From positions 1 through 34,239 of the IMG/VR virus record IMGVR_UViG_2663762996_000010: a DNA stretch of 34,239 nt. One strand, written 5' to 3'. Below, piece after piece: positions 15,901 through 24,900 of the stretch; positions within the stretch are counted from its first letter, which is position 1; the number at the start of each line of letters is the position of its first letter. The DNA is from a virus. Its lineage: Duplodnaviria; Heunggongvirae; Uroviricota; Caudoviricetes. The position numbers were made by a program.

Positions 15901-18900
15901 GACGTATACCAAAAGCAAAACGTTTAAAACCGAAAATGGTGCCCGTCGCTGGCTGGAAAGAAACTCAGGTGAGTGATATGGATTTCGACACAATCATGGA
16001 AAAGGCTTACGAAGAATACTTCGATGGTCTTGCCGAAGGCGAAGAAACTCTCAGCTTCAACGAATTTAAACAGGCGCTTTCCAGTTCGGCAAAATCTAAC
16101 GGCTGATAAGCGAAACAGCACCGCGAGGAATCAGTATGCAGAAACGAGAACCCGTCATCATCGCGCCAGACTATACCGATGATGAACTTTATGAGTGGAT
16201 GCGCCAGAAAATTAATGCAGTGCAGGATCTGAAATGGGCCAATGAAGCCAGGACTAAGCAGGCTGAAAATCTGTCCGCTCTGGAGCAGGATATCACCAGG
16301 CTGGAAAAAGCAGCGGCATTAAGCATTGCCAGAATGGTTACATACCCGCGTTAATAGCTAACCAACGAAGCTAAGGTTGGTAATTAAGGAGTTCTCCACG
16401 GGTCAGGTGGAGTGCGTGCGCCGGACACGGGTGAACATCCGGCACTGACAGTTTACTGAAAGGATATGTCCCTGAAAAGTCAGGGCATAAAGCGAAAGCG
16501 CACGGCGAAATTGGTCTCTCTGTACGGTGTCGTTAAATTTAGTTCGACCGTGCGCTTCCGGTTGTGGCACTCCGCGAAATGGCGCGGCGGTAAGTATGGC
16601 GGGGTTATTCCTTCCTCCGTTGAGGACACCGGGTTGTCAGGTTGACCATACGCTTAAGTGACAACTCCGCTGCAACGCCCTCTGTTATCAATTTTCTGGT
16701 GACGTTTGGCGGTATCAGTTTTACTCCGTGACTGCTCTGCCGCCCTTTTTAAAGTGAATTTTGTGATGTGGTGAATGCGGCTGAGCGCACGCGGAACAGT
16801 TAAAACCAAAAACAGTGTTATGGGTGGATTCTCTGTATCCGGCGTTAATTGTTAACTGGTTAACGTCACCTGGAGGCACCAGGCACCGCATCACAAAATT
16901 CATTGTTGAGGACGCGATAATGGAAACGTTATTACCAAACGTTAATACGTCTGAAGGTTGTTTTGATATTGGTGTTCTGCTCAGTAACCGGGAGTTTACG
17001 GAAGATGCCATTAAGATGAGAAAATATGAACCTTATCTTCTCAATGATAATTCCATACTTTCCAGAATTGCCCTTCTTGAACTTGGTATTATCGGAGAAC
17101 AGCAGTGACTTCAGCATTTGCACTGGTGATGACCGTTTTTCTTATAACGGGTGAGCCACAAAATGTGATTACCGGAATTTATGACAGTAAGTCATCCTGC
17201 ATTCAGGTAAGGGACGAACAAAAAATCCCCGGTGAATGCCTCCCGTTAAAAAAAGTATCGCTGAACCTGAATAACGAAATACCGGCTGGATAACCCGCCA
17301 GNAGAATGAGTATTATTGCGGATTTTCTTAACCCGTACTATACACATAGGGGCAATGATAAAAGGTGGCAAAAATGAATGTTTCCAGTAGAACTGTAGTA
17401 CTGATAAATGTCTTTGCTGCTGTTGGTTTGTTTACTCTTATCTCTATGAGATTTGGCTGGTTTATTTGATGGGTAATGACTCCAACTTATTGATAGTGTT
17501 TTATGTTCAGATAATGCCCGATGACTTTGTCATGCAGCTCCACCGATTTTGAGAACGACAGCGACTTCCGTCCCAGCCGTGCCAGCCGTGCCAGGTGCTG
17601 CCTCAGATTCAGGTTATGCCGCTCAATTCGCTGCGTATATCGCTTGCTGATTACGTGCAGCTTTCCCTTCAGGCGGGATTCATACAGCGGCCAGCCATCC
17701 GTCATCCATATCACCACGTCAAAGGGTGACAGCAGGCTCATAAGACGCCCCAGCGTCGCCATAGTGCGTTCACCGAATACGTGCGCAACAACCGTCTTCC
17801 GGAGACTGTCATACGCGTAAAACAGCCAGCGCTGGCGCGATTTAGCCCCGACATAGCCCCACTGTTCGTCCATTTCCGCGCAGACGATGACGTCACTGCC
17901 CGGCTGTATGCGCGAGGTTACCGACTGCGGCCTGAGTTTTTTAAGTGACGTAAAATCGTGTTGAGGCCAACGCCCATAATGCGTGCAGTTGCCCGGCATC
18001 CAACGCCATTCATGGCCATATCAATGATTTTCTGGTGCGTACCGGGTTGAGAAGCGGTGTAAGTGAACTGCAGTTGCCATGTTTTACGGCAGTGAGAGCA
18101 GAGATAGCGCTGATGTCCGGCAGTGCTTTTGCCGTTACGCACCACCCCGTCAGTAGCTGAACAGGAGGGACAGCTGATAGAAACAGAAGCCACTGGAGCA
18201 CCTCAAAAACACCATCATACACTAAATCAGTAAGTTGGCAGCATCACCCAACCGTTTTATCAAAAATATAAGAGACAAATTCTTCTTTAGTCATATAGAT
18301 TTCCTTCTTGGTTATTCGGGATAAGAAGGATACCACCTCGCCTGACGTGGTTAAAAGCAGGCACACAACGCGAAATGACGCGGCGGTAAGTATGGCGGAG
18401 TTATTCCTTCCCCGTTGAGGACACCGGGTTGTCAGGTTGACCATACGCTTAAGTGACAACCACGCCACAACACTCCATGTTGATTGGTACCTTTGGCGGC
18501 ATCAGTTTCATTGCTGGCTGATGTCCGCCCTTTTTAAAGTGAATTTTGTGATGCGGTGAATGCGGCTCAGCGCACGCGGCACAGTTAAAAAGCGATTAGT
18601 TCCCCCGTATCGGGTGGTTATGGGTTTCCCTGTATCCGGCGTTAATTGTTAACTGGTTAACGTCACCTGGAGGCACCAGGCACCGCATCAACAAAGTTCA
18701 CTTCGGTGATGAAAGGAAAGAGAAAATGTTGAATGTAGCTATTGAAAACCAGAACGGGTGGAATTATAGTGCACCTGCACCTTATAAAACGGGTGCCGGG
18801 CGTGGAAACCCGAACGTTACTTGAGCGCATAGCCGCGCTGAAGCGGTTTTTTTATGCGTAATGCACAGCTCCATTCAAATTATGGTGGGATGTGCAGGGC

Positions 18901-21900: not shown

Positions 21901-24900
21901 ATGATTTTCTGGTGCGTACCGGGTTGAGAAGCGGTGTAAGTGAACTGCAGTTGCCATGTTTTACGGCAGTGAGAGCAGAGATAGCGCTGATGTCCGGCAG
22001 TGCTTTTGCCGTTACGCACCACCCCGTCAGTAGCTGAACAGGAGGGACAGCTGATAGAAACAGAAGCCACTGGAGCACCTCAAAAACACCATCATACACT
22101 AAATCAGTAAGTTGGNNNNNNNNNNNNNNNNNNNNNGTAAGTATGGCGGAGTTATTCCTTCCCCGTTGAGGACACCGGGTTGTCAGGTTGACCATACGCT
22201 TAAGTGACAACTCCGCTGCAACGCCCTCTGTTATCAATTTTCTGGTGACGTTTGGCGGTATCAGTTTTACTCCGTGACTGCTCTGCCGCCCTTTTTAAAG
22301 TGAATTTTGTGATGTGGTGAATGCGGCTGAGCGCACGCGGAACAGTTAAAACCAAAAACAGTGTTATGGGTGGATTCTCTGTATCCGGCGTTAATTGTTA
22401 ACTGGTTAACGTCACCTGGAGGCACCAGGCACCGCATCACAAAATTCATTGTTGAGGACGCGATAATGGAAACGTTATTACCAAACGTTAATACGTCTGA
22501 AGGTTGTTTTGATATTGGTGTTCTGCTCAGTAACCGGGAGTTTACGGAAGATGCCATTAAGATGAGAAAATATGAACCTTATCTTCTCAATGATAATTCC
22601 ATACTTTCCAGAATTGCCCTTCTTGAACTTGGTATTATCGGAGAACAGCAGTGACTTCAGCATTTGCACTGGTGATGACCGTTTTTCTTATAACGGGTGA
22701 GCCACAAAATGTGATTACCGGAATTTATGACAGTAAGTCATCCTGCATTCAGGTAAGGGACGAACAAAAAATCCCCGGTGAATGCCTCCCGTTAAAAAAA
22801 GTATCGCTGAACCTGAATAACGAAATACCGGCTGGATAACCCGCCAGCCATATTAACGCCATACCAACGGATTAAAAATGCCAGCAATGGCAGGGATTCG
22901 TTCACCCTGAAATCTGTAATGAGGTTAAAACAAAATGAGTAAAGTCTTTATTTGCGCCGCCATTCCGGACGAACAGGCAATAAAGGAAGAAGGTGCAGTC
23001 GCTGTAGCCACTACCATTGAAGCCGGTGATGAATGTCGCGCCCGCGCAAAATTTCACTGGCAATTCCTGGAACATTATCCGGCTGCTCAGGACTGCGCTT
23101 ATAAATTTATTGTCTGCGAGGATAAACCTGGCATACCCCGCCCTGCCCTCGATTCATGGGATGCTGAATATATGCAGGAAAACCGCTGGGATGAGGAGTC
23201 TGCTTCTTTTGTCCCGGTTGAGACTGAATCCGATCCGATGAACGTCACTTTTGACAAGCTGGCCCCTGAAGTACAGAACGCTGTCATGGTTAAGTTCGAC
23301 ACATGTGAAAACATCACCGTTGATATGGTTATTAGCGCACAGGAATTGTTGCAGGAAGACATGGCAACATTCGACGGACATATCGTTGAAGCGTTGATGA
23401 AAATGCCAGAAGTTAACGCCATGTATCCGGAGCTTAAGTTGCACGCCATTGGGTGGGTTAAGCATAAATGTATTCCTGGTGCTAAATGGCCCGAAATTCA
23501 GGCAGAGATGCGCATCTGGAAAAAACGTCGCGAAGGTGAACGCAAGGAAACCGGAAAATACACGTCTGTTGTTGATCTCGCCCGCGCCAGAGCCAATCAA
23601 CAGTACACTGAAAATTCAACAGGAAAAATCAGCCCGGTCATTGCTGCCATTCATCGCGAATACAAGCAGACATGGAAAACACTGGATGACGAACTGGCCT
23701 ACGCTCTCTGGCCTGGTGATGTGGATGCCGGAAACATTGACGGCAGCATCCATCGCTGGGCAAAAAATGAAGTTATCGACAACGGCCGCGAAGACTGGAA
23801 GCGTATCTCGGCATCAATGCGCAAACAGCCTGATGCCCTTCGCTACGACCGCCAGACTATTTTTGGCCTTGTCCGTGAACGTCCGATCGACATTCACAAA
23901 GATCCTGTGGCACTGAACAAATACATTACTGAATACCTGACTACAAAGGGCGTGTTTGAAGATGAAGGAAGAAATCAGAGCGCAACTGATACTCTCTCGT
24001 CGCCAGTACCAGAAACTGATGCAGTGGAAACGGCAATTCCGGACAACGAAAAAACCGAATGCAAAGTGGAAGTCGAACCATCTGTAGAGCGTGAAGGGCC
24101 GTTCTACTTCCTCTTCACCGACAAGGATGGCGAAAAATACGGTCGCGCAAACAAACTTTCTGGTCTGGATAAGGCGCTGGCTGCCGGGGCTACTGAAATC
24201 ACGAAAGAAGAATATTTCGCCCGCAAAAACAGTACATACTCAGGTTCACAACAAAATACTGGTGCATCTGACACGATCGCACAACCAGAGCCGGTAAAAG
24301 TTACCGCTGACGAAGTAAACAAAATTATGCAGGCAGCCAATATCAGCCAGCCTGACGCCAATAAGTTGCTTGCTGTATCACGTGGTGAATTTGTTGCAGG
24401 GATTAGCGACCCGAATGATCCGAAATGGGTGAAGGGGATTGAAACCCGCGATTCAGTGAATCAGAACCAACAAGAAACGGAACAGAACGGCCAGAAAGCG
24501 GAACAAAACAGCCCAAATGCGTTACAAAACGAGCCAGAAACGAAACAACCTGAGCCAGTAGCGCAACAGGAACCGGAAAAAGTCTGCACCGCCTGCGGTC
24601 AAAGCGGTGGTGGCAACTGCCCTGATTGTGGCGCGGTAATGGGCGACGCAACATACCAGGAAACATTCGATAAAGAGTATCAGCCTGAAGTTCAGGAAGA
24701 TGATCCGGAGGAAATGGAAGGCGCTGAACATCCACACAAGGAGAACACTGGCGGCAATCAGCATCACGATAGCGATAATGAAACTGGCGAGACGGCAGAT
24801 CACTCAATTAAGGTGAACGGTCATCAAGAAATCACATCCACCAGCAGGACGTGTGACCATCTAATGATCGACCTTGAAACCATGGGAAAAAATCCTGATG

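Follow-up and report, generated by a model that had tools for sequence, protein, structure and literature searches.

In the dicBF operon of Qin-type/lambdoid prophages, known from E. coli K-12 and EHEC, the genes follow the order ydfA-ydfB-ydfC-dicF-dicB-ydfD, and a single genome is known to hold several dicBF loci, one per prophage (PMC5069750). Another described system is the P1-type c4 antisense/Gifsy-1 isrK module, which precedes a rha gene of anti-repressor type, and IS1 insertions and IS1-mediated deletions are known from prophage remnants. False joins in draft assemblies have been described as well. The authors of a pipeline composed of Velvet, SSPACE and GapFiller reported that these greedy tools produce them (PMC5320598). 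By default GapFiller trims both edges of a gap by 10 nt; it extends base by base with 30-mers (PMC3446322), an extension that can switch between paralogues with at least 29 nt in common (PMC3446322, PMC5320598).

The DNA analysed here (the window) is an entire draft-assembly record of 34,239 bp, CXFI01000044.1 (100% identical). It has the gene order of the known dicBF operon: DicF, scoring above the Rfam gathering score, is preceded by ydfABC and followed by dicB-ydfD, with Pfam DUF1391, DicB and DUF1482 domains, and canonical DicF, DicB and DUF1482/YdfD are followed by exo, an xis-like gene and int. The sole departure is a printed tandem array, which is unsupported and is no real difference. 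As judged from sequence comparison, the array very probably arose as an artefact when a short-read draft was scaffolded and gap-filled, and the actual locus would be an ordinary single-copy dicBF operon.

Composition of the printed array

The region contains the following features.

16136-16354, plus strand: ydfC-like gene of 72 aa (ORF list), the last unique gene upstream of the repeat region
16590-16905, plus strand: DicF module M1 with DicF at 16694-16745 (RF00039), continuous with ydfC without a gap and identical to the single copy of relative L007
16920-17293, plus strand: first print of dicB (16920-17108) and ydfD/DUF1482 (17105-17293), from ORFs and Pfam PF05358 and PF07358
17302, no strand: single n, where scaffolding joined prophage DNA to unrelated DNA of the chromosome
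17303-17471, plus strand: 169 bp from the yncL locus of the core chromosome (yncL ORF 17374-17469), from identity search and Pfam YncL
17472-18248, minus strand: IS1a, complete, 777 bp, with hybrid flanks (yncL left, prophage remnant right)
18249-19492, plus strand: Qin-type prophage remnant, from Rfam, Pfam Phage_pRha and a gap-free counterpart in draft L004
19493-20250, minus strand: IS1b, 758 of 768 nt, from sequence comparison
20251-20270, no strand: gap of 20 N (non-ACGT scan)
20271-21357, plus strand: chimeric module M3, from alignment, exact-identity runs and Rfam
21358-22115, minus strand: IS1c, 758 of 768 nt, identical to IS1b by sequence comparison
22116-22136, no strand: gap of 21 N (non-ACGT scan)
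22137-22847, plus strand: module M4, consisting of 26 nt of M2 type and then a second print of M1 from block A (22163)
22935-25406, plus strand: YdfE-like exonuclease of 823 aa (ORF list); the identical protein directly follows the single ydfD of L007

DicF was found three times in identical form (16694-16745, 20356-20407 and 22240-22291; 76.7 bits each with RF00039, gathering score 48) and once in a divergent form at 18482-18530. This agrees with the original prediction, whose other elements were confirmed as well: dicB-ydfD twice (16920-17293 and 22466-22839), an identical Rha'-IS1 unit twice (18630-20250 equals 20495-22115, 1621 bp) and three IS1 copies in the same orientation (17472-18248, 19493-20250 and 21358-22115). 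Besides, 16617-17301 is identical to 22163-22847 over 685 bp. The repeats of the window are far beyond chance. The divergent copy, DicF-like variant M2, carries an 8-nt deletion in its 5' part compared with canonical DicF and scored 38.8 bits (E 8.7e-7, local search), which is below the gathering score.

M1 is the real DicF copy and the exonuclease is the true downstream neighbour of ydfD. M1 and M2 have exact blocks of 49 bp (A, 16617-16665), 29 bp and 61 bp (C, 16833-16893) in common. In M3 an M1-type DicF (20356-20407) gives way within block C (20495-20555) to isrK (20642-20718), C4 (20743-20830) and rha' (from 20888), each printed here for the second time. M4 holds DicF (22240-22291), dicB (22466-22654) and ydfD (22651-22839). 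All switches between M1-type and M2-type alleles, in M3, in M4 and in the middle copy of the sister draft L009, were located at the edges of blocks A and C; the exact repeats that contain these chimeric switch points thus exceed the GapFiller k-mer of 30. After the gaps the window restarts at 20271, which matches 16609, and at 22137, which matches 18386.

Gaps, IS1 copies and yncL DNA at the joins

The non-ACGT runs of the window are situated at 17302 (1 base), 20251-20270 (20) and 22116-22136 (21). All three joins that the array requires coincide with them, namely ydfD to the next unit (n), IS1b to M3 (20 N) and IS1c to M4 (21 N), and no array-specific junction in the window is read through without a gap. 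Two runs of 20 N had been placed exactly at the right ends of IS1. The first run indeed has 20 N, the second has 21, and neither is at a terminus, since both IS1b and IS1c end 10 nt before it. The lone n at 17302, in turn, was correctly regarded as the point where otherwise identical copies diverge: in the alignment with copy 4 the divergence starts exactly there. In L009, a single n is present at two demonstrably non-contiguous joins.

Directly 3' of the n lies the yncL-locus fragment, which the original prediction had overlooked. Positions 17303-17471 are 100% identical to the ortT-yncL-patD core locus and have matches in 5412 of the 5426 complete E. coli genomes; in 0 of these 5426 genomes does yncL-locus DNA adjoin ydfD. 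The fragment is misplaced in the window, and DNA of an unrelated single-copy locus accordingly stands at a join. An IS1 near yncL occurs in 15 complete genomes, but a 338-bp query across the yncL|IS1 junction is spread there over 447-999 bp; because of these spans the insertion point differs from that in the window. When positions 15500-23500 were compared by megablast with the same 5426 genomes, no record reached 80% coverage, and the best matches were single-copy loci.

IS1 ends and InsA/InsB domains are present in the window, IS1b and IS1c being without the last 10 nt. IS1a measures 777 bp because a 9-bp tandem duplication, CCGTGCCAG, is added to the 768 bp of the element. Its flanks are TATTTGATG and CAACCGTTT. 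The search for 9-bp target duplications that had been proposed earlier revealed none at IS1a in the window; the left IS1 of the corresponding unit in L004, with the same right junction, has one. The yncL flank of IS1a reflects either an assembly path via collapsed IS1 or an independent recombination, IS1 x IS1, that really took place, and the hybrid flanks could stem from such an event at another chromosomal site. Real rearrangements mediated by IS1 do occur in genomes rich in this element.

Native context of the inserted unit and single-copy relatives

At the start of the Qin-type remnant stands a minus-strand gene of 66 aa reduced to its 5' stub (18249-18294), followed by the M2 DicF-like variant, isrK (18777-18853), C4 (18878-18965) and a truncated rha (from 19023). 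As in the P1-type c4/Gifsy-1 isrK module, isrK (61.4 bits) and C4 (76.7 bits) are situated directly upstream of a Phage_pRha gene, and the order DicF-isrK-C4-rha-dicB is also found in complete genome L002. Unlike in the known module, rha lacks about 26 C-terminal residues owing to IS1, and no dicB is left downstream. Against complete E. coli genomes the rha' segment gave no close full-length match, the best one having 94.5% identity over 90% of the query. The native context of the unit was obtained by exact-protein look-up. The arrangement IS1-stub-M2-isrK-C4-Rha'-IS1 was found once, without gaps and with 99.6% identity, in AKNE01000036.1 (L004), where a Qin-type prophage remnant harbours it, with a ydfA-like gene on one side and ynfF-ynfG-ynfH-dmsD-clcB-mlc on the other. 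There, the left IS1 represents a simple insertion bordered by the 9-bp target duplication CAACCGTTT, and the right IS1 abuts ynfF without a duplication, as after an adjacent deletion. In the window, by contrast, the corresponding IS1 is flanked by yncL.

L007, a different isolate represented by a 416-kb contig, is 99.95% identical to window positions 7389-17301 (5 mismatches in 9.9 kb on the left) and encodes the identical exo protein. It equals the window minus 17302-22847 and has one DicF, one dicB-ydfD, exo and zero IS1, so that excision of this stretch from the window restores the L007 structure. The window without this stretch also agrees with every one of the 10 places inspected for the exact YdfC protein, each of which has a single dicB-ydfD-exo downstream (9 of the 10 on contigs of 4.2-5.5 Mb). 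L009 has only 2 mismatches with the window in 12,075 bp, yet displays a different and incompatible array. Its copy 1 runs from ydfD into exo without a gap, and it contains only one Rha'-IS1 unit. Only an n separates IS1 from block A in L009; at that position the window has 26 additional bases. Also in L009, canonical DicF followed by isrK-C4-rha is read gap-free. Since this order is natural in some complete genomes (L002) and gap-free in L009, an M3-type sequence could exist somewhere in the genome.

Explanations of the array and consequences

The original prediction had offered two alternatives, a genuine IS1-mediated tandem amplification that alters DicF and DicB dosage and an assembly artefact. 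Amplification would have occurred by unequal recombination between directly oriented IS1 copies, duplicating a DicF-isrK-C4-rha'-IS1 unit in the early-left operon, with the gaps as merely unresolved IS1 ends. It would have yielded three canonical DicF and one variant, two dicB-ydfD and two isrK-C4-rha' units, and a higher dosage of cell-division-inhibiting sRNA and protein. The common orientation of the three IS1 copies agrees with this, as do the perfect identity of the 1621-bp and 685-bp duplicates, which is expected of a recent duplication, and the placement of IS1 and the rha' unit at this locus in the sister assembly. Nevertheless, such an amplification is very improbable: there is no gap-free novel junction, both being hidden by N runs; the sequence resumes after IS1 gaps at three different points (20271, 22137 and block A in L009); core-genome yncL DNA occupies the first join; target duplications are missing; the copy number differs in the nearly identical L009 and is one in L007; and the unit sits at another locus in L004.

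It is likewise very unlikely that a single transfer, as a composite element, brought the IS1-bracketed remnant into the mtfA-adjacent prophage, with assembly errors confined to the second copy and the duplicated flanks. That both the window and L009 scaffold IS1-rha'-IS1 between ydfD/exo and a DicF module would fit consistent read-pair links, but pairs anchored in IS1 or in the common DicF blocks would yield the same links without real adjacency. Moreover, L009 offers no insertion point between ydfD and exo because copy 1 is gap-free there, the claimed insertion points differ between the window and L009, and the unit is seen in situ in L004, where its left IS1 has a target duplication. Finally, the scaffold might fuse two prophages that both contain DicF-dicB-ydfD, 1-17301 deriving from one and 22137-34239 from another. 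Several prophages of one genome can carry dicBF loci (PMC5069750), and the common 685-bp segment could serve as a bridge. However, both parts are contiguous on the 416-kb contig of L007, and L009 reads from ydfC through ydfD into exo. This fusion is extremely improbable and was rejected because both relatives read through.

The artefact thus is the alternative that we retain. It was described originally as the assembler having collapsed or expanded repeats; mere repeat expansion does not describe it, as short IS1-bounded contigs of other loci appear to have been scaffolded in. Most likely the genome possesses at this locus one dicBF early-left operon (ydfA/B/C, DicF, dicB, ydfD, exo, an xis-like gene and int) in a lambdoid prophage beside tRNA-Ser(cga) and mtfA. 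Elsewhere it would contain an IS1 adjoining the core gene yncL and an IS1-bracketed Qin-type prophage remnant with the diverged DicF-like sequence, isrK, C4 and the IS1-truncated rha. Read-pair links would have been ambiguous because the library inserts fall short of the length of IS1 and because the DicF modules have exact blocks of 49, 29 and 61 bp in common. Small IS1-ended contigs, one with the yncL fragment and one with the Qin-type remnant, may then have been placed inside the single-copy operon. Extension of the scaffold edges by k-mer overlap would have reprinted the true flanks on both sides of the insert and would have switched between paralogous DicF modules within the common blocks.

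The window resembles SSPACE/GapFiller-type false joins in its n- or N-marked joins, its IS-length repeats exceeding the insert size, and its edges trimmed by 10 nt beside 20 N. The length of the 20-N gap probably represents GapFiller trimming of 10 + 10 nt, which the IS1b and IS1c ends, 10 nt short, would match. We presume a Velvet/SSPACE/GapFiller-type pipeline on account of the accession style and of this 10-nt/20-N signature, rather than from record metadata.

The real parts (the dicBF operon, IS1 and the isrK/C4/rha module) are already known and the array is very probably not a real feature. It matters mainly as a warning that copy numbers of regulators carried by prophages, such as DicF, DicB, isrK and C4, can be inflated by scaffolding and gap-filling when they are taken from scaffolded short-read drafts of E. 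coli and Shigella genomes rich in IS elements. Drafts are easily screened for two signatures, single-base n characters and 20-N runs lying 10 nt within an IS end. If CXFI01000044.1 were used in a pan-genome or dosage analysis, three or four DicF and a prophage-borne yncL would be counted, while the actual content is most likely one DicF and one diverged copy elsewhere in the genome.

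The prophage and its repeats

The window was found to be 100% identical to the 34,239-bp record CXFI01000044.1 (GCA_001259355.1), which was reached by exact-protein look-up with the 823-aa exonuclease. Because the identity covers the full length of that record, the window is one complete draft-assembly scaffold. The DNA around the array is a lambdoid prophage with genes for terminase, portal and Q, a tRNA cluster, hok/sok, replication genes, cro, a LexA-like repressor and ydfA/B/C-like genes. Its last genes are exo, a DUF4224 (xis-like) gene and int, and it adjoins tRNA-Ser(cga), mtfA, tRNA-Asn and yeeJ. 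The cluster inside the prophage comprises four tRNAs on the minus strand (6836-7145; Gly-tcc, Thr-tgt, Lys-ttt and Met-cat). The sok antitoxin RNA (10726-10900, 111.7 bits) lies beside a hok-family gene, and the same match was present in locus L001 and in the related draft contig L007. yeeJ, encoding an inverse autotransporter adhesin (about 28189-34171), is split in the window record and in the related contig L009 over three consecutive ORFs of 342, 383 and 1265 aa, which suggests a pseudogene; this region is the source of much of the divergence from complete E. coli genomes.

The original prediction had noted repeats of DicF, dicB, IS1 and an IS1-truncated Rha (Rha'). These are present, and only small details were off. 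RNA genes were called by Rfam search at or above the gathering score (48 for DicF).

Elements of the array (M1 and M2, first and second DicF modules)
16617-16665 and 18412-18460: block A, 49 bp, exact between M1 and M2
16694-16745, 20356-20407 and 22240-22291: DicF (Rfam), three identical copies, 76.7 bits each
16833-16893 and 18630-18690: block C, 61 bp, exact between M1 and M2
17302: single n
17472-18248: IS1a, complete, 777 bp through a 9-bp tandem duplication
18777-18853 and 20642-20718: isrK (Rfam)
18878-18965 and 20743-20830: C4 antisense RNA (Rfam)
19493-20250 and 21358-22115: IS1b and IS1c, mutually identical
20251-20270: 20 N
22116-22136: 21 N

All three IS1 copies share one orientation, and IS1b and IS1c both stop at nucleotide 758 of 768, directly before the N runs. 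Exact duplicates were found of 685 bp (16617-17301 and 22163-22847; DicF, dicB, ydfD), of 1621 bp (18630-20250 and 20495-22115; isrK, C4, rha', IS1) and of 16609-16893 at 20271-20555. A fourth, diverged DicF-like sequence (18482-18530) reached 38.8 bits, under the DicF gathering score of 48. It lacks 8 nt in the 5' part relative to canonical DicF and has an altered stem region, the terminator being retained. A sub-threshold STnc100 match (18542-18695; 31.6 bits against a gathering score of 47) spans the interval from this variant to isrK, block C included.

Joins within the array

Three novel junctions are needed for a tandem array such as genuine IS1-mediated amplification would give: from ydfD into the following unit, from IS1b into the third DicF module (M3) and from IS1c into the fourth (M4). 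All three coincide exactly with gap characters (17302, 20251-20270 and 22116-22136), and read-through of any of them was absent from the window sequence. The n is followed by 169 bp (17303-17471) that match the core ortT-yncL-patD locus at 100% identity. Of 5426 complete E. coli genomes, 5412 have a match to this stretch, and in none of the 5426 searched was it joined to ydfD. This segment holds an intact 31-aa yncL ORF and its end is the start of IS1a; bounded by an n and an IS, it has the appearance of a tiny inter-repeat contig.

Contig L007 (SQLE01000109.1, 416 kb), whose exonuclease is identical to that of the window, matched 7389-17301 at 99.95% and then continued straight on at 22848. 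It thus equals the window without 17302-22847, with single copies of DicF and dicB-ydfD and without IS1. L009 (CXFX01000103.1), a sister draft, had 2 mismatches in 12,075 bp. Its first copy runs gap-free from ydfC through ydfD to exo, as far as the equivalent of 23001, and is followed by an n, an IS1 without its first 10 nt, a single rha'-IS1 unit, another n and block A onward. This structure differs from that of the window and is incompatible with it; two near-identical genomes cannot both be so built. Each of the ten sites examined that encode the exact YdfC protein (nine being contigs of 4.2-5.5 Mb) has a single dicB-ydfD-exo. No complete E. coli genome covered at least 80% of 15500-23500. 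In a third draft (CXDA01000245.1, 1-3410) the same rha'-IS1 piece is scaffolded across N runs to the ydfD'-exo of another prophage, whose exo is 96% identical to that of the window. This is a further sign that links over IS1 are unreliable in these drafts.

The rha'-IS1 unit

The truncated Rha (163 aa) was located by exact-protein look-up in a 55.7-kb contig, AKNE01000036.1 (L004), which reproduces 17472-20250 gap-free at 99.6% identity, the DicF-like variant being conserved there. The unit is flanked by a ydfA-like gene on one side and ynfF-ynfG-ynfH-dmsD-clcB-mlc on the other, which is where a Qin-type prophage remnant lies. The left IS1 of L004 is a simple insertion in a 66-aa minus-strand gene and has CAACCGTTT as its 9-bp target duplication. 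No such duplication accompanies the right IS1, which directly adjoins ynfF. To the right of IS1a the window has CAACCGTTT, as in L004, but to its left lies yncL (TATTTGATG); IS1a thus connects two unrelated loci. The tandem duplication in IS1a (17577-17594) is in-frame in insB (CCGTGCCAG twice), giving 170 instead of 167 aa; neither IS1b and IS1c nor the IS1 elements of L004 and L009 have it. The duplication may be a marker of the yncL-adjacent copy or an assembly error.

Through IS1, rha' is shorter by about 26 residues at the C-terminus; it is 75% identical to residues 100-258 of a homologue from a complete genome. Directly upstream of rha (18764-19023 and 20629-20888) are an isrK-like RNA and the C4 antisense RNA, with a weak c4 a1/b1 target match (24.8 bits) and a 32-aa ORF (MLNVAIENQNGW...) overlapping isrK. 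The order DicF-isrK-C4-rha-dicB is intact in the complete genome SCU-484 (L002, 3063-4157). The annotated 284-aa Rha CDS there spans both isrK and C4, a sign that either the gene call is over-extended or the genes overlap in an icd/ant-like way.

Proposed assembly route and probable genome structure

A plausible software route would run through GapFiller, which first trims 10 nt per gap edge and then extends both edges base by base, using 30-mers and majority voting (PMC3446322). Because of this trimming, an unclosable zero- or one-base join would leave 20 or 21 N and a left contig 10 nt short; the ends of IS1b and IS1c agree with this. Where a foreign contig is scaffolded between truly adjacent ones, edge extension would reprint the real neighbour sequence on both sides, and such reprinting would yield the dicB-ydfD and DicF duplicates. 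The authors of a high-throughput pipeline of Velvet, SSPACE and GapFiller themselves report false joins by these greedy tools (PMC5320598). The canonical M1 and the remnant M2 share exact blocks of 49, 29 and 61 bp. By alignment M3 is a chimera, M1-type to block C and M2-type thereafter; M4 is M2-type ahead of block A and M1-type thereafter; and the middle copy of L009 passes from M2-type to M1-type and back, switching at A and C. Every boundary of the exact-identity runs lies at a block edge, the outcome expected of overlap-based extension through sequence common to paralogues.

Between the two explanations originally offered, the gapped joins, the yncL DNA and the structures of L007 and L009 favour an assembly artefact, which the array very probably is. 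They count against genuine IS1-mediated amplification, which we consider highly unlikely. The genome most likely has one ordinary dicBF operon (ydfA/B/C-DicF-dicB-ydfD-exo) in the prophage beside mtfA and two loci elsewhere, namely an IS1-bracketed Qin-type remnant carrying the diverged DicF-like sequence, isrK, C4 and rha', and an IS1 beside yncL. The real components of the array are already known, and several dicBF loci per genome, in separate prophages, have been documented (PMC5069750).
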